From IMG/VR virus record IMGVR_UViG_3300042445_002545: a DNA stretch of 64,000 nt. One strand, 5' to 3'. Origin of the DNA: an uncultured virus (IMG/VR IMGVR_UViG_3300042445_002545). Lineage: Duplodnaviria; Heunggongvirae; Uroviricota; Caudoviricetes. Positions 35,533-53,603 of this stretch are shown piece by piece. Positions within the stretch are counted from its first letter, which is position 1; each line of letters begins with the position of its first letter. The position numbers and the translations under genes are program-made. The notes beneath the pieces were generated by a model. That model had not been told where the DNA came from. It made no database searches and saw nothing but the letters and a program-made list of their open reading frames with translations.

Positions 35533-35535
35533 TTG

Positions 35536-35950: not shown

Positions 35951-35974
35951 CTTTTTTTAAATTATTTTTTTTAG

Positions 35975-36045
35975 AAGCGGATTCAGGACTCGAACCTGGC
36001 TATGGGGTTATGAGCCCCTTGTGCTACCAATTACACCAAACCGCA
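35975..36045 (-). tRNA. tRNA-Met(CAT), initiator-like
   Basis: GGGG-CTCATAA-CCCC anticodon arm, 1:72 mismatch. Confidence 0.8.
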
Positions 36046-36050
36046 ATATG

Positions 36051-36123
36051 TTCACCATAAGGGACTTCAACCCTCATCTCCACTCCCAAACGGAATGGTG
36101 CACTTACTTTGTGCTAATGGTAA
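36051..36123 (-). tRNA. Atypical tRNA-like gene, anticodon unresolved
   Basis: Acceptor, D and T arms present; anticodon arm CCATTCC-GTTTG-GGAGTGG abnormal. Confidence 0.5.
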
Positions 36124-36679: not shown

Positions 36680-37090
36680 TTAAAAATTCCACTCATTATT
36701 TGGTTTAACATCTTGATTATCAGTTAAATCAGTAATAAAAGTTTTTTTATTAATATCATCTCTAATTCTAGCTGCATCTTCATATCTTTCTTCAGTAACG
36801 GCTAACTCAAGTTGTTTTTGTAATGGTAATTCTTTTTTGACACCAGAAGTTTCAAGTGGTGAACCCACCATTTCAATTTTAACTATAGTACCATGTTCAT
36901 TTTCCCATTCAGTTCTTTCAAATGTGTAACCACCATCTTCATACCTAGATACCGATTTAGGTTCACCTAATTCACTTTCATCATCATTTTTTAATGATTC
37001 TCTCATATTCATTAAAGTTTTAATGAATTTTTGTAATTTCTCATTTTTCTTATTCCCATTATTAAAGGATTCGTCAAAATTATCAAACAT
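36680..37090 (-). CDS. UvrB/UvrC-motif protein
   Basis: LQKQLELAVTEERYEDAARIRDDI. Confidence 0.75.
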   Translation of the reverse strand: MFDNFDESFNNGNKKNEKLQKFIKTLMNMRESLKNDDESELGEPKSVSRYEDGGYTFERTEWENEHGTIVKIEMVGSPLETSGVKKELPLQKQLELAVTEERYEDAARIRDDINKKTFITDLTDNQDVKPNNEWNF

Positions 37091-37700
37091 AACTATTTTT
37101 TATTTATTGATTTATTATAATTTATATTGTCAAGTAAAATGCCAAATAATATTTAGTGACATTTAGTCATTAAATATCTATTTTTAAAAAATCTTAACTG
37201 ACAATTAGTCAGGTATTAATTTTTCTTAACTTTTTTAATTAGGTGTTTAATAGGGTTTACCTTAGAAAAGTGAAAATAAAGACCAAAGCAAAATGCTGAT
37301 AATAGGTAAAAAATAAATGTGGTAATTCCATAAGAACCTGTTAGTTGAAATATCATGTAAAATAGTATATCGAAACCCATCGGATTGAAGAACATTCCTA
37401 GCATTAGCATTATTATCGATATTTTTCTGTTTACTGGGGTCACTGTCCATAATTGTTTTAATTTTTTAATATTATAAAAACCGCTACATATAAATATATA
37501 GCGGTTTTGGTTTATTTAAGTTATTTTTTAATACCAACAAGTTATCATAGATACTCCTGGTACTAAACCAATAGCGTGAATTATTTCCTCTTTCCAAACT
37601 GGACCTTCAAAGTCACAATTTAATAATTTCACGATGTTTACAATCCAAGCTATTAAAACGTAAGCCCAAATTAAAAATGGTATTAAAGCTAATTTTCTCA

Positions 37701-38249
37701 TTATTCAAGTGTAAAAGTTAAGTTAGATTTTCTGATTCTAAGTGGTCTTTCAGAAATATGTAAGTATGTCCCACCACTTGGGTAATATTGATGATAGTTG
37801 TCTTGTGCATCAAACCAGAATAAATAATTTCCAGATTCACCATATGCACCACCATCATCTAATACTTCATCTGTTGTATATTGTGTACCACCAATGTATA
37901 CATAATTTGAATTACCTGGACTTTCATATCCATCACCATTTACAGTTTTAGGACTTAAACGTTTGCCACCTGAGGTAACTTTACCTTTAACTGTTGAGTA
38001 TTCTAATACGTCACCAGAATAAGATGAAATAACATACAAGTGTTTTACTTCACCAATTTGGTTGTCTCGCTGCAAACGTTCAATAATGTTTGTTTGTTCA
38101 ACTGTATGCCCTTCAGCATCAGTTTTAATGTGGGTTGTTGCTTTAATAGCACCAGAATCAGATTTTTGCTGTTTCCCATCTCCACAACCTGAAGACATAA
38201 GTACCAATGCAATCATTGATACACTCATTAATTTAAATAATTTTTTCAT
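37701..38249 (-). CDS. Putative lipoprotein
   Basis: Signal peptide ending SSG-C. Confidence 0.7.
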   Translation of the reverse strand: MKKLFKLMSVSMIALVLMSSGCGDGKQQKSDSGAIKATTHIKTDAEGHTVEQTNIIERLQRDNQIGEVKHLYVISSYSGDVLEYSTVKGKVTSGGKRLSPKTVNGDGYESPGNSNYVYIGGTQYTTDEVLDDGGAYGESGNYLFWFDAQDNYHQYYPSGGTYLHISERPLRIRKSNLTFTLE

Positions 38250-38260
38250 TTTTATTTTTT

Positions 38261-38677
38261 TTAATTAATTGATAAAATATATGGTTTAATCTCTCTAGGT
38301 AGAGGTTCTAGATTCGAAGCTGGTAAATCACCTTTATTACAAAAGGCATAGTTAAATTTACTCATTGCTGAGTTATATTCAGAACACAATGAATTGTGCA
38401 TTGAAATTAGACCCATCATTTCAGCTTGTGATTGTTGAAACTGAAAACTTTCCTGGTCTTTAATTGTTGATATTTGCGTTTTGTAAACATCAATGTTTGC
38501 TCTTTTCTCATCAATTGCTGCTGACACATCTTTGAAGTATTCATACTTCTTCAACATTGCTGATGGTGAGTACTCTTTTTGAATTACGTTTGATGCATCT
38601 CCACACATGTTTAATACAAATACCGTTGGTACGATTAAAAACATAATGACTGCAACTACTTTTAAATAAATGTTCAT
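38261..38677 (-). CDS. Membrane-anchored coiled-coil protein
   Basis: N-terminal TM segment followed by helical region. Confidence 0.65.
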   Translation of the reverse strand: MNIYLKVVAVIMFLIVPTVFVLNMCGDASNVIQKEYSPSAMLKKYEYFKDVSAAIDEKRANIDVYKTQISTIKDQESFQFQQSQAEMMGLISMHNSLCSEYNSAMSKFNYAFCNKGDLPASNLEPLPREIKPYILSIN

Positions 38678-38888
38678 ACTTTTTCTATTTTGTTTTTACA
38701 AATATATGTATAATTTTTTAATTAAACAAATAAAAAATGATTTATTTTTTAAGGTGAAAACAGGACTCGAACCTGTGGGTACCAACGATGTGATAAATCA
38801 CAACAATTTCACCCTAAAAAATTATCCTCTATTATCTGGACCATTCATGATTATATAGAAAAATATAAGAATAATAATGATTGCCATA

Positions 38889-39707
38889 TTATGAATTTAT
38901 TAAATCATTTTTAATTTCATTAACTAGATTTAAATGTTCTGTACCAAATTTTTCCCAAGCTAAGCCCATTTGTTTCAAATCGTAATGTTTAACTACCGTA
39001 CTATAATCTTTAATACCATCTTTATGACCAATCACATAGATACTATCAGCCAATTCAACAGCCAGGTTAATATCATGTGTTGAGAATATGATAGTATTCA
39101 ATTCATGACTCTCTTGAATTAATTTAAATGCTGATTTAACATTCTCAATGTTACCAACATCTAAACCACTGAACGGTTCATCAAATACCATAAAATGACC
39201 TGATGATAACAGTTGTTCAATAATCGCAGTTCTTTGTCTTTGACCACCAGATAATTCACATGGGTATTTATCCTTATGTTCAAATAATCCCCAATCAGTT
39301 AGATACTTATCAATCAATGTTGATTTCTCATCTTTAGTGATACCTTTCTTTCTCAATGCATAATTACAGATTTGTGTAATTGTTTTGTGTCTAAACAATG
39401 TATACTTTTGGTCAACAAACCCAACATCACCTTCACCTACTAATTTAGCATCATCTTTATTAACACTACCTATATCAGTAATCAACACTCTACCTGTTGT
39501 TGGTTTAATCAAACCAGTCAAAGCTTTGAATAATGTTGATTTACCTCTACCAGAACGACCAACTACTGCGATTGTCTGACCAACTACAGAACCTTCCGAA
39601 ATAACATCGTGTTCAGTAATATTAATATCTTTAATAATTGTTTTACCATCATATGCGACACTAATGTTGTCAAGACATAAAATTGTTTCTTTAATTTCGT
39701 ATTTCAT
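38889..39707 (-). CDS. ABC transporter ATP-binding protein (NitT/TauT type)
   Basis: GRSGRGKST, LSGGQRQR, VFDEPFSGLD, STHD. Confidence 0.93.
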   Translation of the reverse strand: MKYEIKETILCLDNISVAYDGKTIIKDINITEHDVISEGSVVGQTIAVVGRSGRGKSTLFKALTGLIKPTTGRVLITDIGSVNKDDAKLVGEGDVGFVDQKYTLFRHKTITQICNYALRKKGITKDEKSTLIDKYLTDWGLFEHKDKYPCELSGGQRQRTAIIEQLLSSGHFMVFDEPFSGLDVGNIENVKSAFKLIQESHELNTIIFSTHDINLAVELADSIYVIGHKDGIKDYSTVVKHYDLKQMGLAWEKFGTEHLNLVNEIKNDLINS

Positions 39708-39709
39708 AA

Positions 39710-40477
39710 TTAGATTTTTGAATATCTGAATAAACGTTTTCTGATGAATGTTAATGTGAAGTCCATAAATAGACCAACTAACAAGATGATTAACTGCAAT
39801 GCAATGATTCGACCATGATTCATGAACTTATCAGAATTTTTAATAAGAAATCCTAAACCACCAGCAGCCGCTAATATTGATTCAACCGTTACTAACATCA
39901 TCCACACAATTGCTAGATTTTGTCTAACTACTTCAATAACGTAGTCCACACGACCTTTAATTACAACTTCCCATAGAATCTCCCATCTATTGCAACCAAG
40001 TGCTCTAGCGTGGTCAAAATCCTCTTGTGGGATATCTTTTAGCATTGCTAATAATGATGTTGTTAAATAAGTTGTCATAAATGTTACCAACACCCAAACT
40101 TGAATTGCTCTACCATCAGTTAATAATATTGATATGTAAAATGAAATTCCAGTTAAAGGTAGGTATCTAAATTTACTTAAAATATTAGATATCGGTGATA
40201 TTACTGGTAGTGTTGATAGATACGCAAATACCAAGGATATTGATATTGCAATTAATACAGCTTTACCACATAGTGCTAATGAACTAAATATGTGAACAAT
40301 TAATCCCTCTTTATAAAGTTCAGATACACCACTAAATACTTGGCCTGGTGTTGGGAACATATGTGTAGTCCCAAGACTAGATAAAACCCAAAGTGTTATA
40401 ATGGTTAACAACCAACCTAATCCTATAAAAAGTTTAGTTTTTTGGGTTATATTCTCGAAAGGTTTAAAAATATTCAT
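39710..40477 (-). CDS. ABC transporter permease (NitT/TauT type)
   Basis: Multiple TMs, EAA-like loop DHARALGCNRW, GGLGFLI. Confidence 0.9.
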   Translation of the reverse strand: MNIFKPFENITQKTKLFIGLGWLLTIITLWVLSSLGTTHMFPTPGQVFSGVSELYKEGLIVHIFSSLALCGKAVLIAISISLVFAYLSTLPVISPISNILSKFRYLPLTGISFYISILLTDGRAIQVWVLVTFMTTYLTTSLLAMLKDIPQEDFDHARALGCNRWEILWEVVIKGRVDYVIEVVRQNLAIVWMMLVTVESILAAAGGLGFLIKNSDKFMNHGRIIALQLIILLVGLFMDFTLTFIRKRLFRYSKI

Positions 40478-40482
40478 ACTGA

Positions 40483-40986
40483 TTAGAAATTGTAAGTAAG
40501 TCCTGTACTGATATAATCAATACCATCCCAGTTGCTTGATTGAATAAAAATACCGTATTTTTTGATACTTACTGACATCCCAACACCATATTCAATGAAT
40601 AATTGTTTTGTTGAAATATAATTACCAATACCAAATATACCATAGACACTAATTGGTCCAATTGGTTGATTAAATGATGTTTTAACTTCATACCAGTAGT
40701 TTTGAATTGCATCACCATGGAAATCTAAATTACCTCTACCAGCAACTAAACCTAAACCAAAGTTGTCATACATACCACCAAATTCAATTGATGGGTAAGA
40801 TGTTTTACCAAATGTTGATGAACCAGTGTTTGAAATTGAGATACCAGCTGATAAGTAATAACAAACTTTAGCTGAGTCAGAACCTTTTAATTCTGAATTA
40901 TCAAAGTCAGTTGTAGTCCCTAATTTAATTTGATTGAATGATGTTAATGACACTAATAATGATAATACTAATAATAAATTTTTCAT
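40483..40986 (-). CDS. Secreted / outer-membrane beta-strand protein
   Basis: Signal peptide, alternating beta strands, C-terminal YNF. Confidence 0.55.
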   Translation of the reverse strand: MKNLLLVLSLLVSLTSFNQIKLGTTTDFDNSELKGSDSAKVCYYLSAGISISNTGSSTFGKTSYPSIEFGGMYDNFGLGLVAGRGNLDFHGDAIQNYWYEVKTSFNQPIGPISVYGIFGIGNYISTKQLFIEYGVGMSVSIKKYGIFIQSSNWDGIDYISTGLTYNF

Positions 40987-41056
40987 TTTGTTTTTTTTAA
41001 GGTTAAAAAATGGGGTAAACCTTAGATTTACCCCATTTTAATGTTTAATTTTAAGA

Positions 41057-42883
41057 TTACTGTAGTAATGTGATTTCTACTCGTCTATTCTTAGCTTTAC
41101 CTTGCGCCGTTGAGTTATCAGCAACTGGTCTAGAATCACCTTTACCATCTACCTCTTGAATACGTGATTTAGGAATCCCACGATTTTCAAGGTATTCAAC
41201 TACCGCATTTGCTCTACCTTTAGATAAGGTCATGTTGCTTGATGGGTTACCAACGTTATCAGTGTGACCTACAATTCTTAATTTAGAATCTTCCGCTTGC
41301 ATTAACAAGTTATAGATTTTCTCTAAATCTTTATTTGATACTTGTTGAATTGTAGTACTTCCAGTTGCAAAGTTAATATTCCAGTTACCACTAGCCATAA
41401 CGTGTGTTTTGTTTTTTGAGTAATCAGATTTTTCGACCATACCTACATCAATATCATCAATGTTTTTCAAGTAACGTAAGTTTACAGCTTCATCGTAAGG
41501 TACAATTCTATCAACTGATTGCATAAATCCGTAAGGATTCAATTCACTTAAGTACGTTGATACTTGGTTATATACTGACTCATAACGATTGATACCATCA
41601 CTGATACCGTAGTATTGCATAGCATCACCATAGTTAAGTACTCTTGACCCACCCATGTTGTATACAAGTCCGTTTTTATTACCTTTCGTACCTTTGAACA
41701 TTGTGTACCAGTATTCAGGTGTTTCCATATCAAATGTCTTTGCAACACATTCAGATGCTTTTACTCTCCATGAATCATATTGTTTCATTTGGTTAGATGC
41801 GGTCAATGCTGATTTAAGGATATTACTTACGATTTTAGGGTGTTTTGCCGCCCATTCTTTAACACCGATTAAAGTAGTTGCCATTTGATTTCTAAATTCA
41901 TGTGTTGATACAACATCAGTAAATCCAGTCAATGCATCAAATACAATCTTATCACCAGGTGTCCATGTAGCACAACCATCAATTTTCTTATTGATTGTCT
42001 TACCAGTCAATTTACCATCTTTAACCTCTTTCAATTCAACAGTGAAACCATTCTTTTGAGATTTGATTAATTCTTTTGCAGAGTTAATATAGTCATCATC
42101 TTCAGATGGGTAAAAGTTTACAGCTTCAGGGTCATATGTTGTTACATCAGGATTAACTTTCAATCCATTAGCAAAAACGTAGTTTAATGAAGTTACCCAG
42201 TCACCATCACCAATAACAGTTGAGATAAGAGCACCTTTCATTGATTGTGGGTCTGTTTTCCATTCTTTAGGTCCGATTAATTTATCTTCACCATCTGACA
42301 TACCGAAACAACCTTGAACCTCTACGTGATATTTACCTTCACCAAATTTATCATCTAATGCTGATTGCATAGTAGAGATGTAATATGGTGCACCATCACC
42401 CATTATAATAACACCATAAGCTGATTTATTAGATTTAGGATATTCAACACCACGGTCCATTTCCTCAATAAACTTCAACTGCATATTCTTTAATTCGGTA
42501 ACCCAGTCTTGTCTGATGATTTCCAAATTAACACCGTTTGCCTCCATAAGGGAACCTTCAGTTGTTTTTGGACCACCATTTGCTACGATGATACCAGATT
42601 GGCCATTCCAAGCGTATCCAGCAATTCGTACTACTGATTTATCAGACATTTCACTTGATAACTCATCAGATGGTAAATCAATCAAAGTACTTCTCATACT
42701 GTTATCGATATTATCATCACTCAATTCCATTCCGTCTAGTGTTTTAGATTCATCTACACGAAGTCCAGGTGCTAAGAAATACACACCAGTTAAAACGATG
42801 GCTAAACCAGCCGCTAAAATAAAAATTTCAAATCCTGTAGTCAAACCTTGATTTGGATTTTTTCTGTTAAAAATTCTTCCCAT
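41057..42883 (-). CDS. Substrate-binding-like protein fused to a C-terminal OmpA peptidoglycan-binding domain
   Basis: N-terminal TM; FATGS, GHTDNVG, LSKGRANAV, NRRVEI. Confidence 0.85.
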   Translation of the reverse strand: MGRIFNRKNPNQGLTTGFEIFILAAGLAIVLTGVYFLAPGLRVDESKTLDGMELSDDNIDNSMRSTLIDLPSDELSSEMSDKSVVRIAGYAWNGQSGIIVANGGPKTTEGSLMEANGVNLEIIRQDWVTELKNMQLKFIEEMDRGVEYPKSNKSAYGVIIMGDGAPYYISTMQSALDDKFGEGKYHVEVQGCFGMSDGEDKLIGPKEWKTDPQSMKGALISTVIGDGDWVTSLNYVFANGLKVNPDVTTYDPEAVNFYPSEDDDYINSAKELIKSQKNGFTVELKEVKDGKLTGKTINKKIDGCATWTPGDKIVFDALTGFTDVVSTHEFRNQMATTLIGVKEWAAKHPKIVSNILKSALTASNQMKQYDSWRVKASECVAKTFDMETPEYWYTMFKGTKGNKNGLVYNMGGSRVLNYGDAMQYYGISDGINRYESVYNQVSTYLSELNPYGFMQSVDRIVPYDEAVNLRYLKNIDDIDVGMVEKSDYSKNKTHVMASGNWNINFATGSTTIQQVSNKDLEKIYNLLMQAEDSKLRIVGHTDNVGNPSSNMTLSKGRANAVVEYLENRGIPKSRIQEVDGKGDSRPVADNSTAQGKAKNRRVEITLLQ

Positions 42884-42990
42884 TTTTTTTCTTTTTTTTT
42901 TGTTATTAATAATTGTTTTTAAATTTTACCTTACAAAGATAAGGATAACTTTTCAATTATCCAAATCTTTTTTGATTTTTTTTTGATTAA

Positions 42991-44094
42991 TTAAAATAAT
43001 TCACCAAATCCACCACTTTTCAACTTATCATCACCCGTTAATTTGTATTCTGGGTTGTTATAAGCTTTAGCTGAAGGTACAGTTTCAGTACCGATTCTAA
43101 TTTGATTAGCTAATGTATCTAGATTTGTATATAGTTCATCACTATCCAATGAATATTTACTTGTTAAAGTATCAATATCATTTAAGTTACCAGCTGTGAT
43201 TGCAATATCTTCAGCAATTGTACTTGTTACAACATCTAATGCGTAATCAAGTTCCCAGCTCTTAGTAAACAACATTGCTGATTTTGCACTTTCTGTAGCT
43301 TCTCTAGATTTTTGAGCAAATGCATAATCTTTCTTCAAGATTTCAATTGTTGCATCAAAGTCTAATACTTTAATATCCATACTTGTCTCAACCATTATCA
43401 ATTTTTGACCGAATTTCTTCATGATATTGGCTCTTGTACCATATTTAGTAACAAAATCTTTAGATTGTACCATTTGGTGACCTACACGTTGCGCTTCAGA
43501 TAGTAACTTCATCAATTCAGCGTTACCATTTACATAGTCGTCAGAACCTCTAGCAGCCGCACCATCCTTAGCAACCATTTCATCTAATTCAGCTTTTAAT
43601 TTCTGAGCTTTACTTTGTAATGAAATAATACGGTTTTGCATTTCTTTAGCATCTTTCTCCGATTTATCAGCTTCAACTTCCATATCTTGTCTAAGATTTG
43701 AAATTTTACCTTTAGATAATCTAAAATTTTGCTGATTAGCAATCATTAATTGTCTTTGTTTTTCCAACTCCATAAAAGGGTCATGTTTTATAATTGCCTT
43801 ATGTAAGTTTCGTGTTAAAACTCGAATACCTTTCAATATAACTGGCATAGCAATCACTAAACCAACCAATAGTATTCCAGTTGCAGCAACTGCTAAAAAT
43901 TGACCAATAGCTAAGAACAATGGTGGTAATACATATACCCATGTTAAATACCCCAATCCGATTAATGCTCCTAATTTCAAGAACCAGAATAATCCTTTTT
44001 CACCTTTTCTGAACTTGTCGATTTTGTTTGAAATCTCACCTTCAGAGAAGTGTTTCATAATAGGGAGATTCATGTACGTGTTTTGTGTTTCCAT
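42991..44094 (-). CDS. Membrane coiled-coil protein (PspA/IM30-like)
   Basis: Two TMs followed by a long coiled coil. Confidence 0.55.
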   Translation of the reverse strand: METQNTYMNLPIMKHFSEGEISNKIDKFRKGEKGLFWFLKLGALIGLGYLTWVYVLPPLFLAIGQFLAVAATGILLVGLVIAMPVILKGIRVLTRNLHKAIIKHDPFMELEKQRQLMIANQQNFRLSKGKISNLRQDMEVEADKSEKDAKEMQNRIISLQSKAQKLKAELDEMVAKDGAAARGSDDYVNGNAELMKLLSEAQRVGHQMVQSKDFVTKYGTRANIMKKFGQKLIMVETSMDIKVLDFDATIEILKKDYAFAQKSREATESAKSAMLFTKSWELDYALDVVTSTIAEDIAITAGNLNDIDTLTSKYSLDSDELYTNLDTLANQIRIGTETVPSAKAYNNPEYKLTGDDKLKSGGFGELF

Positions 44095-44096
44095 TT

Positions 44097-44792
44097 TTAC
44101 TTTAAATTATTAGTTAAACCTTGTTTTACTGCGTTAATTGATGACAGTATTTTATCTTTAGCTACATCATTAGCCATTAATTTGCAATCTACTTCAGTTA
44201 ATTCGTTTGCATATTTATTATCAATTTCCGAAAGTGATGATTGTTTTGATACAATTTGATTGCTGATTGCTTCCATTTGCATTTTCAAACCATCAAGTTC
44301 ACTAGACAATTGACTTCTTTCGTTTTCTTTAGTACTTAACAACTGATTTTTCTTAGTTGTACCGTTATCAACGTAACTTTTATGAACTTTCATAATCTCA
44401 TCAAAATAGTATTGAGATTGAGATAATAATGATTCTTTAGATACATTACCATCCATAGCTTTACCCATACTTAAGGCCATAGCATAAACTTGTGGATTAT
44501 CAATACCACCACTAACCACAGCTTTATAGAATTCATAGAAATCATAACCAGCTTGATTCAAACCATCAAAACCAGATTCATATAACTGAATGATTTTTTC
44601 TAAATGTGGTTGACATGAAGGGTTATTAATAGATGCAACTGTTGGTGTTACATTTGGAAATGTAGTGGGTGGTATCATATTCGAAGTTTCGTTTACCCCT
44701 GGAAACTTAACTGCTTCTGTTACGATAGGTGCAACAGTTTCTGGTTTTTTTTCTTCCTCATTGTTAATAAAGAACAAATCTTTTAATCCCAT
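44097..44792 (-). CDS. Coiled-coil hypothetical protein, first gene of the ABC/OmpA cluster
   Basis: Promoter at about 44834; GYDFYEF motif, C-terminal coiled coil. Confidence 0.65.
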   Translation of the reverse strand: MGLKDLFFINNEEEKKPETVAPIVTEAVKFPGVNETSNMIPPTTFPNVTPTVASINNPSCQPHLEKIIQLYESGFDGLNQAGYDFYEFYKAVVSGGIDNPQVYAMALSMGKAMDGNVSKESLLSQSQYYFDEIMKVHKSYVDNGTTKKNQLLSTKENERSQLSSELDGLKMQMEAISNQIVSKQSSLSEIDNKYANELTEVDCKLMANDVAKDKILSSINAVKQGLTNNLK

Positions 44793-45241
44793 TTTTTTTC
44801 TTTTTTTCGTTAATAATATTTTTAATTACCTGACAAAGATATGTATAATATTTCAATTAAACAAATATTTTTTAATTTTTTTTGATTTTTGTTGAGTGAA
44901 GAGGAATTGAACCTCAAGCATCTAGTATAAGAGACTGCCGTCCCCGCCTCGTCCAGAGCACCCAATGGTTTAAATTAAACTTTTTCCCAATAAGTTTTAG
45001 TTATCACCTTCTCTTTCTTTTCAACCCTATTAAGTTCTGTGATATCACTATCCTCTCTACCATAATCAGAATCAAAAACATAAGTATTAGTTTCCCAATA
45101 ACCATCTAATTCTCTAGGTAATTCTGGGAAATATTTTTCAGATATTTCAGTTATTGACCTGGTAAAGAAGTTAGAACCCCTTCTATGTTCTTCATAACTA
45201 TCTTCTTGAAAGTCTTCAATTAAGATATCAAAATCAATACC

Positions 45242-45322
45242 TAATTCTTTTGCGATTTGTCTTGTTATTTTATTAATCATAATTCTTTTGCGATTTGTCT
45301 TGTTATTTTATTAATCATAATT
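45242..45322. repeat. 38-bp direct tandem duplication covering a gene start
   Basis: TAATTCTTTTGCGATTTGTCTTGTTATTTTATTAATCA x2. Confidence 0.9.
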
Positions 45323-46851
45323 TTAATAGGTTGATTGGAATTTACTTTCTTCTAAAAAAGAACCTACTGTTTCCTTACTTTGCATTATTAAATCTTTAGC
45401 TATCTTTTCAGATATTACTTTATAGATAACATTTAAAATAGCATCCTGATGTGAACCATCTTCAAAATACTCTTTAAACTTTGTTTTAATACCAAATAAA
45501 TCAATAGTATCTTTCACATGAAACTCTTTACCATTTAATACAAACTTACAATGCATAATTATAGTATTTTCGAAGTGAGTTCCATAAGAAGTATTTATAA
45601 AAAACCCTTCAGCTGTTATAATGTTATCATTTAATTTAAAATGATGCATTATATTTTCAATTGCTTTTTCTTGAAACTCATTTAATAATTCTACACTTTT
45701 ATCTGTTGGTGCTTTATGCTCATGTACAGTTTTTTCGTAAGGTACTAAACGTTCTGTATAAGTGTGTGTATTTTTACTCATATTTTAATTTTTATCTACT
45801 TCTTTAGCTCTTTTAGTACCTAATGATATCGGTAATAAGGCCCAACCAAATACCCATGCTACTAAAAACCCTTGTAGATTAATTCCAGCTTTTTGATACA
45901 TGTCCATACCTATGACATATAAAGTACTGAAAACCCAGTATAAAAATAATAAATTATCCATAATTTTTAATTGTTAATAAGAACAAACATTCTTTTTTTA
46001 TTTGATGGTTTTTTAAATAAATCAGCAAATCTATCATTGAAACTATCTAATTCAGAATAATCTATTACTGCAACTGAATGATTAACGTAATCATCTTCAT
46101 CTACTACATCTAAATCTTTAATTGGTGTTAAATAGCAATCATAATCGGCTATTTCAGTAAAAATAAAACAATCACCTTTATGCTGATATTTCCATTCACC
46201 AATTTGACTATTCAAACCCTTACCTATTGGTATTGCAGCAGTATCGAAATCAATATCATGTTCACTTAAATCTGGTAATACTAATAACATATCACATTCA
46301 AGCATTGGTTTATGGGAATAAGACCCACCTTTAAATTCAACTAACTCAATATCAAATTTAGAAAGTCTAACCCTGACGGCCATTAGGTCATCAGGGTTTA
46401 CCTTATTAGATTTGGCTAAATATATCTTAGTTTTCATTTTCAGATACGAACCATTCGTTTTTAATTTCATTGGCAACTTCCAATTCAATAGCTTTCAACT
46501 TAATTTCCATCTTAGTGTCGTGCAATTCATTCATCCATCTTGATGCATCAAAATCTTTGCTACCTGGACGTAAACTGTATGTGTTGTCTGGTGCCAAATC
46601 AGTTAAACTAGTTAACTTATTGTTTAATTTTGAAAGCTCACGTTTCAATGTATTGATAAATGTATCAACTTCCAAGATTGTGTCTTCAGCTAATTGTTTA
46701 GCTCTTGTTTCTTTAATTGTATTATCAGAAGCTGATAACATGTTTACAAATTTACTCATAGTTTATTATTTTAATTATTAATTAATCAGGATGCAAATAT
46801 AATATCTTTTTTTTAATTACGCAACTTTTTTTAAACTTTTTTTGATTTTAG

Positions 46852-46924
46852 TTGAGATAAGGGGTTTCGAACCCCGTGTTTCCACCCGTCTAGGTGGCGT
46901 TCTAACCAATTAAACTATATCCCA
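46852..46924 (-). tRNA. Atypical tRNA with a 6-nt anticodon loop and G3.U70
   Basis: Good acceptor, D and T arms; CCACC-TAGACG-GGTGG. Confidence 0.55.
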
Positions 46925-46929
46925 ATTTG

Positions 46930-47058
46930 TCGATGTTAAGGGACTCGAACCCATGAGCGGATGCCTCCTATTGTGTTACCTATTATTTAACGTGGACTCG
47001 AACCACACAGCCACCAAGACCAAATCCGAATCGAACGGAATACTCGCCAACAACACCG
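46930..47058 (-). ncRNA. tRNA-like RNA with three T-loop hairpins
   Basis: CGGTGTT/AACATCG-A closing stem; TTCGATT, TTCGAGT, TTCGAGT loops. Confidence 0.55.
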
Positions 47059-47061
47059 TTG

Positions 47062-47204
47062 TGGAGGATACAGGACTCGAACCTGTGGCCATGGGGTTAT
47101 CCCCACATCTATTTATCAGGCTAATTCATTGTACTTCTGAATCTCAAACACCCTATCTTCAATGGTAACTATAGTTACTACTCTACCAACTGAGCTAATC
47201 CCCC
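47062..47204 (-). ncRNA. 143-nt Ala-acceptor tRNA-like RNA with the anticodon arm replaced by a long insert
   Basis: GGGGGAT/ATCCTCC-A (G3.U70), canonical D arm and T arm. Confidence 0.7.
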
Positions 47205-47248
47205 AAATAAGATTTTTGTAATTACCTGGAATCTTGTAACCAGTTATG

Positions 47249-47322
47249 TGGAGCTAGGGGTGTATGATACCCCATCTCCGCATTGCAAGTGCGGTGTGTT
47301 AGCCAGTTGTCACCATAGCCCC
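47249..47322 (-). tRNA. tRNA-Ala(TGC)
   Basis: CCGCA-CTTGCAA-TGCGG, G3.U70; atypical T-loop ATCATAC. Confidence 0.85.
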
Positions 47323-47456
47323 AAATTAAGCTAAATAAATAAGTCTTCGTCTCTCCTAGCTGGCCCACTTGAAGATTTAATCTTCGTGCCCGACTCGAAC
47401 GGGAATGCTAGCGACTCAATCCAGCTTGCCCATAAATGGGTACTTATTTAACTTAG

Positions 47457-47528
47457 CGGTCCCACGGGTAATCGAAACCCGAACTCTGCCGTGACAGGGC
47501 AGCATTATTGCCGTTTAACTACAGGACC
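47457..47528 (-). tRNA. tRNA-Asp(GTC)
   Basis: CTGCC-CTGTCAC-GGCAG, G73. Confidence 0.92.
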
Positions 47529-47594
47529 AAAGTTACTTTTTCTTTCTCAGCTATTCAGCGTCTAGGAAATATAAAAGTATAAAACCCTACATCG

Positions 47595-47664
47595 TATTGG
47601 GTATGGGACTCGAACCCATATCAACCGCTCACTGCGGCCATCCTGACCATTAGACGAACCCAAA
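47595..47664 (-). tRNA. Degenerate tRNA (Glu/Asp-type D arm, anticodon unresolved)
   Basis: T arm ATGGG-TTCGAGT-CCCAT; anticodon arm GCCGC-AGTGA-GCGGT. Confidence 0.5.
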
Positions 47665-47735
47665 AAACCAACTTTATCTGACTGCAATCATCAATCATTG
47701 GCTCTCTTGCAAGTATTGCAGTACTTGCTTGATAG

Positions 47736-47807
47736 TCACCCATACGGTAGTCGAAACCGTGTTTTTAGGTTGAAAACCTAACGTCCTAACCACTAGACGA
47801 ATGGGCG
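47736..47807 (-). tRNA. tRNA-Glu(TTC)
   Basis: TTAGG-TTTTCAA-CCTAA. Confidence 0.9.
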
Positions 47808-47943
47808 TGTTAAATGTACTAATTCCTTATAGGTGACTAGATTTATCCTTTCGGACTAGATGGGTAGCCTAGCGACTTATCGACACAATTATCGATGTCC
47901 TTTTTCTAATACTTCATATCACGTTTACCTTCAATACATTTTG

Positions 47944-48017
47944 TGGTACCAGTGGGACTCGAACCCACGACACCTAGAGCTTCAATCTAGTGCTACTACC
48001 AACTGAGCTACAGTACC
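47944..48017 (-). tRNA. tRNA-Phe(GAA)
   Basis: CTAGA-TTGAAGC-TCTAG. Confidence 0.9.
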
Positions 48018-48029
48018 ATTATTGTTTTA

Positions 48030-48061
48030 CAAAGATATGAATAATTTTTTAATTATCCAAA
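48030..48061 (-). promoter_or_regulatory. Internal Bacteroidota-type promoter just upstream of tRNA-Phe
   Basis: TTTG-N20-TATCTTTG. Confidence 0.7.
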
Positions 48062-48131
48062 TTTTTTATATTTTTTTTTAATTTAATATTTCAAAGAACG
48101 TGAAACCGATGTTTCTGTTATTGTTATAAAC

Positions 48132-48164
48132 AAAAAAAGCTCTGATTTTTAGGTCAGAGCTTTT
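48132..48164 (-). terminator. Attenuator terminator of tRNA operon 2
   Basis: AAAAGCTCTGA-CCTAAAAA-TCAGAGCTTTTTTT on minus strand. Confidence 0.85.
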
Positions 48165-48187
48165 ATCAATTATGTTAAACGATTACG

Positions 48188-48277
48188 TTAACTTATGACA
48201 ATAGTTGACCTTCCCAAGCTTTCATCCGCCTCGGCTGCAAAAAATGCAAAATCAAATATGTTAGTTAATGTTCTCAT
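48188..48277 (-). CDS. Leader peptide 2 MRTLTNIFDFAFFAAEADESLGRSTIVIS
   Basis: Residues 8-19 are only F/D/A/E. Confidence 0.85.
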   Translation of the reverse strand: MRTLTNIFDFAFFAAEADESLGRSTIVIS

Positions 48278-48299
48278 TGTGTTTTTTATTCGTGTTCTA

Positions 48300-48342
48300 A
48301 TTAAATATATGCAAATATACTAAAAGTTTTTTTATTTGTCAA
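48300..48342 (-). promoter_or_regulatory. tRNA operon 2 promoter (30-bp repeat, copy 2)
   Basis: TTG-N20-TATATTTG, identical 30-mer. Confidence 0.85.
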
Positions 48343-48361
48343 GTTTTTTTAAAACTTTTTT

Positions 48362-49012
48362 TTATTTTCTTATTTTACCTAGGAAATCCTTAGTATTATT
48401 AATACCTATAGCGTTTACTATTTGTCTTAAAAAAGTTTGTCTACTTTCAGTATTACTTTCTTTATACTGATTTATAAGATTAACAACTTCTTGCTCTTTA
48501 TCTCTAGATAATTTTGTTTTATAATCAGCAACATCTAATATACTCATGTAATAGTAACCATCAATTAATTCAGCACTATCTAAAATTTCATTTGTTGACC
48601 TAACTCTTACATCAGCATATGAACCTCCAGCTTTTGATGGGTCCCAAATAGTAAAAGCTTCAATTGAACCGTCTGATGTTGGTCTATATATACCACCATT
48701 TTTTAATTCTTCCTGTAGTCCAGCATTTATCCAAAGTTGCTCATCTGGTATCACTATATCTAAATCACCAATAGTACCACTTAATCCAAATGCGTCTCTT
48801 AATTTGGGGTACAAATACAATCTAGCTGACCCACCAATGAAGTACGATTTATTATTGGGTACTATACCAAATTTTTTAAAAATTAATTCATCAGCTCTAC
48901 TTAATAATGTATTTAAACCACTAGTGTCAACTTCATTTACTAAATCCTCACTTACGTTTTTCCAAAATTCTTTTAAAAAAAATTCGTTTATATAAATCTC
49001 ACTTAATCTCAT
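48362..49012 (-). CDS. Nucleotidyltransferase-fold protein
   Basis: FIGGSA...GDLDI motif; K..LSRDK. Confidence 0.6.
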   Translation of the reverse strand: MRLSEIYINEFFLKEFWKNVSEDLVNEVDTSGLNTLLSRADELIFKKFGIVPNNKSYFIGGSARLYLYPKLRDAFGLSGTIGDLDIVIPDEQLWINAGLQEELKNGGIYRPTSDGSIEAFTIWDPSKAGGSYADVRVRSTNEILDSAELIDGYYYMSILDVADYKTKLSRDKEQEVVNLINQYKESNTESRQTFLRQIVNAIGINNTKDFLGKIRK

Positions 49013-49514
49013 ATTCTTTTAATCTATCAATTACTTCTTTATTATATTGACATTCAATTGTCAATTTTTTAAATGATAGAAACATACTTAATGGTCTTGG
49101 TCCATTTAGAAATAAGAAATTATAAGCTGACCATTCACTAGTCACATAATAACTTTTTCTATTTTCCATTATATCCAATAAACACATTGGGTGTTTATTG
49201 ACATATTTCCAATCATATTTGTAACAAAGTTTAGATAAATTTTTCATAAATAATCTAAACTCAATAATTCTAGTGATTAATGTTACTAGAACAAACCCTA
49301 AAAGTGTAATTACTATCATATTATAAATATTTAAACTTTATCAAATATAATAACTATTTTTGTACTATCCAAATTTATTTGATTATTTTTTTGATTATTT
49401 AAACCATAAGCATCACATGATGTTTTTGTTGTTGCACAAGATGCTAGTATTATCGCTAGTAATATTAATTTTTTCATATTAATAAATATGTTGATTATTT
49501 TTAAAATAATTAAG

Positions 49515-49594
49515 TACCTCTGGCGGGACTCGAACCCGCAAGAACTCGGTTTCTAAGACCGTTAGCTGTGCCAATTTACATAAGTCACAGAGGC
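49515..49594 (-). tRNA. tRNA-Leu(TAG), short variable loop and enlarged D region
   Basis: CGGT-CTTAGAA-ACCG; A73. Confidence 0.8.
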
Positions 49595-49602
49595 ATATTT
49601 TG

Positions 49603-49685
49603 TACTCCAAGAGGGGCTCGAACCCTCACGCCCTACGGGCACAGCATTTTAAGTGCTGCGTGTCTACCAATTCCACCATCGGAGC
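49603..49685 (-). tRNA. tRNA-Leu(TAA)
   Basis: CAGCA-CTTAAAA-TGCTG, long variable arm. Confidence 0.92.
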
Positions 49686-49731
49686 ATTTTGCACTTCCTA
49701 CCCATCCATATCGTATAGTGCTAACCGCTAG

Positions 49732-49805
49732 TACACCCTGTAGGATTCGAACCTACGACCCTTCGGATGTAAACCGAATGCTCTAACCAACTGAGCTAAA
49801 GGTGC
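49732..49805 (-). tRNA. tRNA-Val(TAC)
   Basis: TTCGG-TTTACAT-CCGAA. Confidence 0.92.
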
Positions 49806-49816
49806 ATGTGGTAGGT

Positions 49817-50146
49817 TTAACCCACCTTTATAAATGTTTCATTCTTTATGGATTTACTAATCCATCTGTTAAGCTCGGAGCCCCTCATTTCACTGTAGAA
49901 AGTAGTTGTTCCAAGGTCTTCAGACAATGTTGTAAACACATCTGACTCCTTAACTTCTGCACCAACTTCTAAAGTTGATACATGATATCTAACCTTTACA
50001 TCAACTGTTGAAATTGGAAACTCGTATATATCACCAAACACTTCAATGTTGTAATACAAGTTACCAGCAATATAGTGACTAAACTTAGCCATTGCTTTTG
50101 ACTTAAATAAGTCTTTTTTTATTTCAGTTTCATTAAACATAACCAT
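49817..50146 (-). CDS. Hypothetical protein embedded in tRNA operon 3
   Basis: 109-aa ORF between tRNA-Cys and tRNA-Val. Confidence 0.7.
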   Translation of the reverse strand: MVMFNETEIKKDLFKSKAMAKFSHYIAGNLYYNIEVFGDIYEFPISTVDVKVRYHVSTLEVGAEVKESDVFTTLSEDLGTTTFYSEMRGSELNRWISKSIKNETFIKVG

Positions 50147-50305
50147 TTTTTTTTCTTCGTTTAAAGAGTAACTTTATAGTATTTAAACTAATCTTATTAT
50201 TTTTATCAGCTCTAACATGTCTAAAATTTTCATATGACCCTTTATATGTTCCCGTTAATACTACTTTCCCCTCATTATCTTTTCTTTCCATAATCTATCT
50301 TTTTG

Positions 50306-50378
50306 AGCTGGGAGAGGGATTTGAACCCCCGTATGTGGATTTGCAATCCACTGCCTAAAGCCACTCGACCATCCCAGC
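50306..50378 (-). tRNA. tRNA-Cys(GCA)
   Basis: GTGGA-TTGCAAA-TCCAC, U73. Confidence 0.92.
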
Positions 50379-50385
50379 ATTAAAC

Positions 50386-50417
50386 AAAAAACCCGAAGTG
50401 ACTAATCGCTTCGGGTT
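50386..50417 (-). terminator. Attenuator terminator of tRNA operon 3
   Basis: AACCCGAAGCGA-TTAG-TCACTTCGGGTTTTTT on minus strand. Confidence 0.85.
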
Positions 50418-50446
50418 GTGAATATTGTTTATTTATTATTAAACTA

Positions 50447-50521
50447 TCAACACAGCCCAAAACTGACTACCACTAAAAGTAGACATAAGTTAAGCACCAA
50501 AATGTTGTTAATTGTTTTCAT
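50447..50521 (-). CDS. Leader peptide 3 MKTINNILVLNLCLLLVVVSFGLC
   Basis: 11 of residues 8-19 are L/V/C. Confidence 0.85.
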   Translation of the reverse strand: MKTINNILVLNLCLLLVVVSFGLC

Positions 50522-50545
50522 CGTATTAATTTTTTAATCGTTTTA

Positions 50546-50588
50546 ATTAAATATATGCAAATATACTAAAAGTTTTTTAATTTGTCAA
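50546..50588 (-). promoter_or_regulatory. tRNA operon 3 promoter (30-bp repeat, copy 3)
   Basis: TTG-N20-TATATTTG, identical 30-mer. Confidence 0.85.
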
Positions 50589-50650
50589 GTTTTTATGTAA
50601 AAATATTTTTTTTATTTACAATTTAATCAAATTTGATTATAATTTACCCG

Positions 50651-50962
50651 ATGGATAAGGTATATTTACTAGCAAATGAAGAATGGACACAATTTAAAAT
50701 TGGTGTCACAAAAAACGTAACTAATAAACGAAAAAGTGATTTACAAACTGGTAATGGTTCTGAAATAATTATTGTTAATACTTTTGAAACTAGATTTTCA
50801 AACAAAGTTGAGAAGTGGTTACATAGAAAATATAATTCAAAGCGATTAGTTGGTGAATGGTTTGCGCTTAATGACAATGATATTACTAATTTCATATCTG
50901 ATTGTCAAAAAGCGCATGATACATTCCAATGTTTAATCGATAGTGAGAATCCTTTTATTTAA
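50651..50962 (+). CDS. T5orf172/MUG113-type GIY-YIG domain protein
   Basis: VYLL..FKIGVT..R..LQTGN..EKWLHRKY..GEWF. Confidence 0.85.
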   Translation: MDKVYLLANEEWTQFKIGVTKNVTNKRKSDLQTGNGSEIIIVNTFETRFSNKVEKWLHRKYNSKRLVGEWFALNDNDITNFISDCQKAHDTFQCLIDSENPFI

Positions 50963-52173
50963 GAATCGAATCTAACTTCTAAAGTTGTATAATCTTGTTT
51001 TATATTATAGAATTCTTTTCTAATATAAATTAATAAAGCATTTACCAAACCTTGGTCAACCTTTTTAGGTAAATCTGAATTATCAAATATACTATCCATT
51101 TCTTCAATAGCCTGGTCAGCCATTGCTATTAAATTTTCCAAATCAACTTCACCACGTCTAATTGCAAGTAACTCTTGAGCATCTTCTCTACGAACATTAA
51201 TACCTTCACCTCTACCAATCTCTTGGGCCATTCTAATAAGTCGGATACAATGCATCATATTCTTACCATCGATGCGTTGACCATGTTCTTGCGTTTCAAC
51301 ATAACGAGTATCATTACGGTTTTCCAACCATTCTTGGTATTCTCTATAATCTTTGCAGTGCACAGTGTAACCGTCTTTGTTGTAGATAATATTACAAATA
51401 GGTGTTTCACCTTTTGGTATGCTTGAAAGACGTAGTTGGTTGGATTCAGCCGCATTTGTACCTTCACCAGACTTGACTAAACCTTTATAACCAAATCCTA
51501 ATGGCAAATTGTTCTTAGTTCTATTTTGTTTTGCAGACTCCCTTACATTTTCAGGAATTGATTCACTAAAACACAAAGTTGCTAACATATCAAAGTAAAC
51601 AGCATAAACGTCTCTTGCATTTGGAACATTTACAACCCCAATAAATTTTTCTTCGTAGTTGTAATCCTCGTTCCAAACTTTCCATGGAATAGATTTTTCA
51701 CCTTCAATAACATAACAGAAATCCAATACATCTTTACGAGTCACTTTGTCTTTCTCCCAGTTTTGTTTCTTATCAAGACCTTTCGCCTTCTTGATTTGTT
51801 GTCTAGCGTAGCCACCGAATGAATCCTTACAAATCTTTGTAATAAACTCATCCTTATGCGCAATTATAACATCAAACAATGGATGTTTAGATACAATGCA
51901 ATCTTCAGGGCTATTAAGTAATTCTAAAACTGTTGGGTTATTGCTACCCATTAGTTCTAGGAAACGTCTAATTTCCCACCCAACGTAATCTTTATTTACG
52001 TTTATTTGTTCAACATACCCAGTACCTAAGATATAATCTTGTGGTAGTATATATACAAATTTTTTGTCTATATCAGATGTTGGTGTCTGCGTTCCATACG
52101 CTTGTGACCCAACTATTGTTTCAAATAGGATTAACCCATTTTCAACTAAAAATTCATGCGTTATTTGTTTCAT
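50959..52173 (-). CDS. Pol-beta-superfamily nucleotidyltransferase (YcgL/RlaP-like)
   Basis: GSQAYGTQTPTSDID, NNPTVLELL, KNMMHCIRL, LLAIRRGE. Confidence 0.85.
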   Translation of the reverse strand: MKQITHEFLVENGLILFETIVGSQAYGTQTPTSDIDKKFVYILPQDYILGTGYVEQINVNKDYVGWEIRRFLELMGSNNPTVLELLNSPEDCIVSKHPLFDVIIAHKDEFITKICKDSFGGYARQQIKKAKGLDKKQNWEKDKVTRKDVLDFCYVIEGEKSIPWKVWNEDYNYEEKFIGVVNVPNARDVYAVYFDMLATLCFSESIPENVRESAKQNRTKNNLPLGFGYKGLVKSGEGTNAAESNQLRLSSIPKGETPICNIIYNKDGYTVHCKDYREYQEWLENRNDTRYVETQEHGQRIDGKNMMHCIRLIRMAQEIGRGEGINVRREDAQELLAIRRGEVDLENLIAMADQAIEEMDSIFDNSDLPKKVDQGLVNALLIYIRKEFYNIKQDYTTLEVRFDS

Positions 52174-52689
52174 AATTCTTTTTTAAATTTAAATTACTAA
52201 TGAGTATTTGTTGAACGTACAATATTTTCATGTTCATCATCACCACCAAACCTTACTTCGATATAATCACAGTAATTATCTTGCTCTGAATCCAACCACT
52301 TACAGAATTGTTCTCTGGCTATATCACCATTTTTAGAAGTGTCCCAACCCTCTTTACTACCATCTGGTGCAATAAAGAAAGAAGATTGTCCATTGGTTAA
52401 ACCAGATATAATTTCACCAATTAATTTACTACCATGACGCTCAATAAGCTCACCGCTAAATTGCTCTTCAAATATTTCAATAGCTTTATTTCGTGCCTCT
52501 AGTACTTTATCTCCTTGCCACCCAGTAACTATAATCGCATTATGTTTAATATACCCCATTTTAATTTACTTTTTTACAAATATACTAATAATTCTTTAAT
52601 ATACCAAAAATTTTGCAAATATAATATAAAAAAAATCAAAATAAATAGTATTTAGTATTATTAAAAAATATTTATAATAAAAGACTATT

Positions 52690-52950
52690 ATGGTGTGGTA
52701 TAAAAAAGTTAGTAACTGGATAACGGGGTTATTTAAAGATGAAAAGGGTAGTCCTTCATCAAAAAGATTTATTGGTATTATATGTGGTTTATCTTTATGT
52801 GTTTCATTATTTATAAACCAATATACAGGTCATAAACCATCTGATGCCTTGGTTGATTCTGTTGCACTATTAGCATTTGGTTGTTTAGGTTTATCTTCAG
52901 TCGATAAAATATGGGCTAAAAGAGATGGTAAAGTAGAAGAAAATAATTAA
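52690..52950 (+). CDS. Small two-TM membrane protein (holin-like)
   Basis: SSKRF followed by two hydrophobic helices; TATTTATA upstream. Confidence 0.5.
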   Translation: MVWYKKVSNWITGLFKDEKGSPSSKRFIGIICGLSLCVSLFINQYTGHKPSDALVDSVALLAFGCLGLSSVDKIWAKRDGKVEENN

Positions 52951-53603
52951 TTATTTTTTTCAGAAGCATATTTAACACCCATTATTGTCCCCACAATACT
53001 AAATGCGTTGGTTAATAATATACCAACGATATTACTCCATGTTGAGCCTACAATTGCTGTATCTCTATTTGTAAGTAAAGAAATAATAAAGACACCTGTG
53101 GTTATAATACCTACGCTGATAATAATCCATAGTGCAACTTTAACAATTGACCCTATCAATTCAAATTGTGACTTCTTCTGTAATAATTCTAAATCATTTT
53201 CAACTGAAGCTCTAGCATTTTCAGCTTCACGTCTAGCTATTTCAGATTCTTCTCTGGCATTTTCAGCTTCTATTTTTAAATGTTCAGCTTCAAATCTAGC
53301 TGATTCAGCTTCATTTTTAGCACATTCATTTTCTTTTAAACTATGAATTAATTCTTCTTGTATTCGAATATTCTCTTCCTTCCAGGTAATTAATTCATTA
53401 TTTTGTTTTTGAATTTGTTTTGTGATTTCCAACCTTTTTTTTCGGGTTGTCATATCTTTGTCAACACAACTTTTGATATATTTTTCAAATAGTTCATCAC
53501 CATCAGTATCAATAACTTTAAGAATATTACCCTCAAGTGAAATCTTTTTAGTTTTATGTAACTGAATTAATAAATCTTTAGTCTTGTTGTCAACTTTAAT
53601 CAT
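52947..53603 (-). CDS. Coiled-coil protein with two C-terminal TMs
   Basis: AENAR-type heptad repeats; overlaps the stop codon of the receiver gene. Confidence 0.7.
   Translation of the reverse strand: MIKVDNKTKDLLIQLHKTKKISLEGNILKVIDTDGDELFEKYIKSCVDKDMTTRKKRLEITKQIQKQNNELITWKEENIRIQEELIHSLKENECAKNEAESARFEAEHLKIEAENAREESEIARREAENARASVENDLELLQKKSQFELIGSIVKVALWIIISVGIITTGVFIISLLTNRDTAIVGSTWSNIVGILLTNAFSIVGTIMGVKYASEKNN

Follow-up and report, generated by a model that had tools for sequence, protein, structure and literature searches.

A candidate leader-peptide attenuator ahead of a Cys/Val/Leu tRNA operon in a large uncultured phage

What a short reading frame and a transcription stop signal are doing between a promoter and a set of transfer RNA (tRNA) genes is the question raised by positions 50386-50588 of a 64,000-nucleotide (nt) stretch of DNA from an uncultured virus (IMG/VR record IMGVR_UViG_3300042445_002545; the whole stretch is referred to hereafter as the window), where the promoter, an open reading frame (ORF), an intrinsic terminator and a tRNA-Cys gene all fall within 211 nt. 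The answer that we consider likely, and hold with good confidence, is a ribosome-mediated (leader-peptide) transcription attenuator that would gate the phage tRNA operon behind it, such that the phage probably makes its Cys, Val and Leu tRNAs mainly when those codons are read slowly. The element is called unit 3, to distinguish it from two sibling units in the window; all of its features lie on the minus strand, and coordinates are window positions.

The leader ORF, MKTINNILVLNLCLLLVVVSFGLC (50521..50447), comprises 24 codons and a TGA stop (ATG AAA ACA ATT AAC AAC ATT TTG GTG CTT AAC TTA, continuing TGT CTA CTT TTA GTG GTA GTC AGT TTT GGG CTG TGT TGA). Its codons 8-19 (LVLNLCLLLVVV, 50465..50500) specify Leu, Val or Cys at 11 of 12 positions, using exactly the TTG/CTT/TTA/CTA, GTG/GTA/GTC and TGT set that had been listed for this ORF in a reading made from the letters alone (the sequence-only reading). 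Such a run is exceptional in its setting: Cys, Val and Leu make up 15.2% of the residues in the window's 71 ORFs of at least 100 amino acids, none of the 13,879 12-residue segments of those ORFs reaches 11 of 12, and the leader ORF is alone among the 312 six-frame ORFs of 20-40 amino acids in having a Cys/Val/Leu run of at least 12 with at most one miss. The synonymous codons of the run are rarer than phage usage predicts (48 of 20,000 simulations were as rare) and more varied (nine distinct codons against 6.8 expected; 878 of 20,000 simulations), and rare, slowly read codons would, in our interpretation, raise the sensitivity of a sensor.

The tRNA genes downstream are cognate to this run. 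ARAGORN and Rfam both identify tRNA-Cys(GCA) (50305..50378), tRNA-Val(TAC) (49731..49805) and tRNA-Leu(TAA) (49602..49685); the fourth gene, tRNA-Leu(TAG) (49515..49585), scores 30.8 bits with the Rfam tRNA model (gathering score 29) and, missed by ARAGORN in the window, is called by ARAGORN in the near-identical loci L016 and L025. Between tRNA-Leu(TAG) and the next unit's promoter at 48342 there is no other tRNA, in agreement with the earlier claim that these four alone follow the leader. The match of run to cluster holds at the amino-acid level, and it is specific: cross-tested against the other two clusters of the window, the leader yields runs of at most two residues, and each unit's run fits its own cluster only. 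Two small ORFs without a Pfam family also lie in the operon (49817..50291, minus strand; 52 amino acids at 50291..50133 and 109 amino acids at 50146..49817).

Upstream of the ORF, a -33/-35-like element, TTGACA (50583..50588), is separated by a 17-nt spacer from TATATT (11 of 12 matches), and a -7 element of the Bacteroidota TAnnTTTG type, TATATTTG (50558..50565), sits inside an exact 23-nt block (50546-50568). The Bacteroidota promoter consensus, as given in PMC6847099, is TTTG/TANNTTTG with the G at -5; this register would place the transcription start at 50553, 5 nt past the G of TAnnTTTG, with the ORF beginning 32 nt downstream of it. The initiation region of the ORF has no Shine-Dalgarno sequence and carries A at -3, -6, -12 and -13, all of which are described in PMC6847099 as positive determinants of initiation in Flavobacterium johnsoniae.

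Relatives of the leader were found on other contigs, giving 13 distinct class-3 leaders, of which 12 were aligned (alignment A1) and one, L161, lies outside A1 and was handled separately; loci cut at 320 nt (e.g. L229, L233 and L260) carry no cluster information. The ORF is intact in all 13, at 24-26 codons and with its length changes in frame, and the A at -3 is invariant across A1. In the closest relatives, L016 and L025, three substitutions fall in the ORF and all are synonymous. The 24-residue peptide itself belongs to no Pfam family.

The terminator (50386..50417) is a GC-rich 9-base-pair (bp) hairpin (stem 50417-50409 / 50398-50390; -14.9 kcal/mol) with six U (50391-50386). Only 7 nt separate its U run from the start of tRNA-Cys (7-20 nt in class-3 relatives), a gap too short for a promoter of its own, so that tRNA-Cys transcripts must read through the terminator. 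The 5' arm of this hairpin has an alternative partner inside the ORF: UUUUGGGCUGUG (50462-50451) pairs with CACAACCCGAAG (50420-50409), which starts 26 nt past the leader stop codon; a C/A mismatch is the sole interruption among the 12 positions, and two of the 11 pairs are G.U. The coordinates and G.U pairs of this duplex are as the sequence-only reading had them, and its proposal of an antiterminator built on the terminator's 5' arm also stood; what needed revision is the extent of the helix, which is longer than the 12-mer and amounts to 17 bp (50469-50451 with 50420-50403, terminator loop included). The antiterminator 5' strand (UAGUC.GUUUUGGG.UGUG, 50451..50469) covers codons 18-24 and its 3' strand (CACA.CCCGAAGCGAUUA, 50403..50420) spans the terminator 5' arm and loop; antiterminator and terminator are thus mutually exclusive. 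A further ORF-internal 1:2 hairpin (50442..50513; region 1 50513-50478 with region 2 50474-50442) is a candidate anti-antiterminator.

Both of the competing helices are conserved. Pairing of the terminator holds in 99% of A1 cells; five of its nine pairs are compensatory, and every relative has at least six U. For the antiterminator, 73.4% of cells are paired, whereas slid partners reach 33-47%, and none of 500 shuffles attained its covariation score; the core (columns 76-81:127-132) is paired in 71 of 72 cells and contains three compensatory pairs (of types GU/UA/GC, UA/AU and CG/UA/UG), and the outer parts of the helix are lineage-specific. The 1:2 hairpin is paired in 79.9% of cells, against 28-55% when slid, a support that we regard as only moderate because the fold of the window itself supplied the structure.

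Duplex energies were compared as well. The best duplex between ORF and terminator arm in the window reaches -16.5 kcal/mol, against -9.96 +/- 2.34 kcal/mol for dinucleotide shuffles of the ORF, and among six representatives the cognate ORF–terminator duplexes average -13.9 kcal/mol against -9.5 kcal/mol for non-cognate combinations (6 of 720 permutations as good, the matrix falling into three blocks). The position of the best duplex is also shared: in 28 of 29 leaders, drawn from four classes, it lies just after the codon run (ORF nt 49-85), L020 being the exception.

We then rationalize the interplay of these elements through constraint folding with a simulated ribosome. The free window leader folds into the ORF-internal hairpin plus terminator (-38.2 kcal/mol). 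If the footprint has its centre at codons 10-16, the 17-bp antiterminator (-19.9 to -23.2 kcal/mol) forms in the nascent RNA, ahead of synthesis of the terminator's 3' arm; a ribosome sitting on the stop codon makes antiterminator pairing impossible. Across nine representatives, the free full-length RNA always has a complete terminator, the ORF-internal hairpin and no ORF:arm pairs (9 of 9), and a ribosome at codon 9 or 12 always permits 9-15 ORF:arm pairs in the nascent RNA (again 9 of 9). In-silico masking would appear, for the window's leader, to reproduce trp-type logic.

A mechanism can be proposed from these states. A strong Bacteroidota-type promoter would start an RNA that opens with a well-initiated ORF of 24 codons. 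Were the Leu, Val and Cys codons read fast, the ribosome would arrive at the stop codon and cover region 2 (codons 18-24), the terminator hairpin would form, and transcription would end 7 nt before tRNA-Cys. Were matching charged tRNA scarce, the ribosome would linger in codons 8-15, masking region 1 and leaving region 2 free to capture the terminator 5' arm once made; the polymerase would then read through, yielding tRNA-Cys, the two small ORFs, tRNA-Val, tRNA-Leu(TAA) and tRNA-Leu(TAG). An untranslated leader would adopt the 1:2 hairpin and the terminator, making OFF the default. Computation establishes the parts, the fact that they exclude one another, their conserved and covarying pairing, and the fit between leader and tRNAs; translation of the ORF, ribosome–polymerase coupling and the response to tRNA supply are inferred. 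Since the product tRNAs decode the sensor's own codons, the circuit would act as a negative feedback holding decoding capacity at a set level.

Two relatives allow a view of how leader and cluster change together. In L161, a decayed tRNA-Cys lies directly after the terminator (about 1700-1790, plus strand in the unit's orientation), with recognisable acceptor and T arms, an anticodon arm turned into a T/A-rich stretch and no ARAGORN call; over the following 1.5 kilobases (kb), Leu(TAG) is the sole tRNA called and there is no Val tRNA. The L161 leader run, LVLTSLLLLL, contains four consecutive CTA codons and has lost its Cys and most of its Val codons, and its ORF repeats the terminator's 3' arm exactly over 9 nt. 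L158 has two Cys codons in its leader run and two tRNA-Cys genes in its cluster. Each is a single case, and both point in the direction of leader–cluster co-evolution.

A separate feature shared with L161 is the small basic ORF right after tRNA-Cys (52 amino acids, 50133-50291, minus strand), which is conserved: its L161 counterpart, of 47 amino acids, follows the tRNA-Cys remnant, and the two share the motif ...G(T/S)Y(K/E)GSY(E/D)(N/K)FR..., again without a Pfam family.

Unit 3 is not alone. The exact 23-mer TAGTATATTTGCATATATTTAAT of its promoter and 5' untranslated region occurs three times in the window (0.01 expected by chance), and behind each copy stand a short ORF, a terminator and a tRNA cluster, in line with the shared layout claimed by the sequence-only reading. 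Sibling unit 1 (35710-35960, minus strand; leader MKTTGTTYQPKQYTQGGKP...) stands ahead of Pro, Gln, Tyr, Thr, Gly, Gly, Lys and Lys tRNAs, and its leader has an 18-residue run of K, T, G, Y, Q and P exclusively. Sibling unit 2 (48135-48342, minus strand; leader MRTLTNIFDFAFFAAEADE..., with the run ...FDFAFFAAEADE...) precedes Phe, Glu, His, Asp and Ala tRNAs, and its leader carries F, D, A and E over 12 consecutive residues. The leaders of both fit their own clusters, with one imperfection: cluster 2 carries tRNA-His, yet His is found in the leader of a fourth class.

This fourth class was found by scanning viral and metagenome contigs with the promoter block, and its run consists of I, N, H, M, S, W and R. 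In G002, a complete 287,855-bp phage with terminal repeats on a related contig, the tRNA genes behind the class-4 leader MRTINIHMISISNWRRNSH... are those for Asn, His, Trp, Ser, Ile, Met, Arg(ACG), Arg(TCT) and Ser(GCT). On one contig (loci L019, L022 and L023), a class-4 leader lies ~20.4 kb upstream of units matching the window's units 3 and 2, to which they are identical over the 460 nt compared; from this placement, the class-4 leader of the window's own lineage would be expected just beyond the window end. The four runs jointly use all 20 amino acids (6 + 4 + 3 + 7). It is tempting, and at this stage a tentative suggestion that we hold to be possible rather than likely, to view them as a four-channel sensor array of this jumbo-phage lineage, in which one shared promoter block drives four leaders (TGYQPK / FDAE / LVC / NIHRMSW), each switching on its own replacement tRNAs when decoding is slow, the whole forming a self-regulating, phage-encoded decoding-capacity homeostat. 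Such an array could also answer host tRNA depletion or anticodon-nuclease defences, aided by the RlaP-type RNA-repair gene that adjoins unit 3.

Some details of these units stand apart from that argument. The class-4 loci are L019, L013 and L020 (G002:C1:96544, minus strand), with leaders MITNNIHRMSISNWRRNS... / MRTINIHMISISNWRRNSH..., and the class-4 leader covers both codon boxes of Arg and of Ser. In unit 2, a second promoter copy of the TAnnTTTG type (repeat family D1; 48019-48067, minus strand) lies between the terminator and tRNA-Phe and could bypass the unit-2 attenuator; unit 3 has no second promoter between terminator and tRNA. One motif, GTTCTTTGAMAT, which units 1 and 2 have in the gap from the terminator to the first tRNA, was set aside, its four window matches being equalled in 13 of 100 shuffles and hence not significant.

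Several observations weigh against an attenuator at unit 3 or limit how it could work. The 12 leaders of A1 represent about four lineages, so that few independent compensatory events are available. The duplex test is modest for the window's own leader (25 of 2000 shuffles as good; it beats 98.75%), weak for unit 1 (159 of 2000 as good) and fails for unit 2 (-6.2 vs -7.6 kcal/mol). The tRNA match put forward in the sequence-only reading is supported for amino acids, and matching of synonymous codons to anticodons is not above expectation: 8 of 11 run codons are readable by standard wobble from the cluster's four anticodons, where 7.94 are expected from the phage's synonymous usage. Reading CTT (used twice) and GTC would take extended wobble or host tRNAs, and Asn codon 11 lies inside the run with no Asn tRNA in this cluster. 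The Val codons 17-19 lie too near region 2 to signal, since a ribosome stalled there would mask it; in the masking simulation, an A site placed at codon 18 leaves just six ORF:arm pairs. When the ribosome sits at the stop codon, ORF:arm pairing disappears completely in three of the nine representatives, is partly removed in three and persists in the remaining three. For a ribosome at codon 15, the thermodynamically optimal fold of the complete window leader retains the terminator, and antitermination must therefore be kinetic. Finally, three RNA-labelled sequencing runs (shares of 0.05-0.10, small shares as contigs) settle nothing: their contigs fall mostly on tRNA-Leu at 90-95% likeness, and the one 169-nt contig that spans 50328-50494 (run X1) is flagged as probably DNA.

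Other explanations of the locus have to account for the same features. The ORF could encode a small hydrophobic membrane peptide and have a terminator of its own; the tRNAs would then arise by leaky read-through, and the Leu/Val/Cys content would reflect a transmembrane helix. As the sequence-only reading conceded, the peptide taken by itself could pass for a transmembrane segment (residues 7-24 are hydrophobic apart from N11 and S20), and the Pfam result is neutral. The relatives and siblings speak otherwise, and here the earlier preference for an attenuator over a membrane peptide is upheld: in 5 of the 13 relatives (L011, L148, L197, L260 and L094) the hydrophobic run is ~10 residues long before Asp or Asp-Gln intervenes, the C-terminal third changes residues while the RNA pairing is kept, and the three sibling leaders, alike in promoter and layout, are hydrophilic, each fitting its own tRNA cluster. 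The run moreover avoids Ile, Ala, Phe, Gly and Met, which are freely used in transmembrane helices, and its codons are unusually rare; we consider a membrane peptide quite improbable. An ORF of chance or vestigial origin is still less credible, in our estimate very improbable indeed: here, expression would be constitutive, with the terminator insulating the tRNA operon from upstream transcription or setting a fixed low level. AT-rich DNA is rich in short ORFs, as the 312 noted above illustrate, but this one has stayed intact in all 13 divergent relatives with only in-frame length changes, its three substitutions in L016 and L025 are all silent, its Leu/Val/Cys composition is matched by none of the 13,879 segments and by no other of the 312 short ORFs, and a promoter upstream of the terminator would be pointless for a mere insulator.

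The alternative to which we allow somewhat more room, while still thinking it unlikely, accepts a translated, tRNA-matched leader and dispenses with control by termination: the leader would act through the stability or processing of the precursor RNA (the hairpin being a stabiliser or an RNase site), or would be a sink or test substrate for the new tRNAs. The leader–tRNA match does not in itself fix the read-out, and the thermodynamic folds with a ribosome at codon 15 retain the hairpin, as this explanation would have it. Set against it are the full intrinsic-terminator anatomy of the hairpin, whose GC-rich 9-bp stem and at least six U recur in every relative, and the ORF segment complementary to the 5' arm, which co-varies with that arm in a way that a pure stabiliser would not need. 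A transcription attenuator remains the reading that we prefer.

Leader-peptide attenuation is textbook for amino-acid biosynthesis, including the multivalent attenuators of the enterobacterial branched-chain operons (ilvGMEDA, ilvBN and leu) and the trp, his, thr and pheA leaders. Unit 3 resembles these in its short promoter-proximal ORF with regulatory codons for more than one amino acid, in its intrinsic terminator, antiterminator sharing the terminator 5' arm and candidate 1:2 hairpin upstream, and in the proposed conversion of slow decoding into read-through (the 1:2 / 2:3 / 3:4 scheme of the trp type). It differs in that tRNAs and two small ORFs, rather than biosynthetic enzymes, would be regulated, and because the regulated genes are tRNAs the signal closing the loop would be decoding capacity and not amino-acid synthesis; it would differ also in sensing Cys together with Leu and Val, and differs in being a phage element with a Bacteroidota TAnnTTTG promoter and initiation that lacks a Shine-Dalgarno sequence. 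In Escherichia coli, attenuation of pheST by the pheM leader acts on an aminoacyl-tRNA synthetase in response to a single amino acid; as there, a leader-peptide attenuator would stand ahead of a gene for the translation apparatus, whereas the phage unit would control tRNA genes and sense multiple amino acids. T-box riboswitches likewise use transcription antitermination to report a specific tRNA pool, but bind uncharged tRNA directly, with neither ribosome nor ORF, whereas the phage unit has an ORF with a codon run.

An Rfam cmscan of 33000-53000 (E <= 0.1) gave no leader-family or T-box match on 50386-50588, so that the unit belongs to none of the Rfam leader families and is no T-box; the matches over this interval were 18 tRNAs, one weak tmRNA-like hit and one to Plastid-ycf2. 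A full-text literature search, with subscription-only papers outside its coverage, returned no account of leader-peptide attenuation controlling tRNA genes in cells or phages. The novelty lies in what would be regulated, namely phage tRNA genes whose products read the same codons that the sensor is built from. If the mechanism holds, large phages with dozens of tRNAs would dose them on demand, per codon family, through ribosome-speed feedback; this would provide a handle on why phages carry tRNAs (codon supply versus replacement of degraded or cleaved host tRNAs) and a source of compact natural decoding-rate sensors for chosen codons.

The wider setting is probably that of a large AT-rich phage with a Bacteroidota-type host, as suggested by the promoter type and by its relatives. 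The TAnnTTTG-type promoter is present in nine copies in the window (family D1), and the nearest proteins by tblastn are from uncultured 634-642 kb phages, Tenacibaculum phage PTm1 and Lak phages; the near-identical record G001 served in place of the window's own assembly. Searched by blastn against a phage collection, 49400-51000 matched at tRNA genes only, and no cultured phage with this leader was found there. The 221-nt leader gave 16 marginal matches to phages (E 0.02-0.7), and of the 15 listed, 14 cover the promoter and 5' untranslated region block alone, in Polaribacter, Cellulophaga and Chryseobacterium phages; these weak promoter-block matches fall almost only in phages of Flavobacteriia. 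The match in Chryseobacterium phage MA9V-1 was discarded as a candidate unit, as it precedes a hypothetical protein and not tRNAs. A 16-mer scan of viral sequences returned 118 loci, mostly chance AT-rich matches, with L094 the sole new leader.

Upstream of unit 3 lies the gene of an RlaP-family RNA-repair nucleotidyltransferase (Pfam PF10127, E 3e-24; 50959-52173, minus strand), and between this gene and the leader promoter is an ORF with a MUG113/T5orf172 domain (50633-50962, plus strand) that looks like a mobile nuclease gene. Elsewhere in the window, 36124-36651 (minus strand) presents a promoter made up of TTGACA, a 17-nt spacer and TATCTTTG, then a 13-codon ORF, MSSATKQTNYMRC, and ~400 nt of non-coding DNA ahead of a tRNA at 36123-36050, with no Rfam match; a similar short ORF, MVSAKQTKQIREW, lies ~410 nt ahead of a long tRNA-Met-like gene in L009 and L169. 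Repeats of tRNA 3' ends (families D3, D4, D9 and D10) at 34456-34495, 38742-38775, 46919-46958 and 47052-47089 have no ARAGORN or Rfam tRNA call and may mark unusual, split or decayed tRNAs. A weak tmRNA-like match (15.5 bits) is found at 47059-47204, ARAGORN reports a tRNA with a two-letter anticodon at 46851-46924, and a perfect 38-nt tandem duplication (family D18) occupies 45242-45317.

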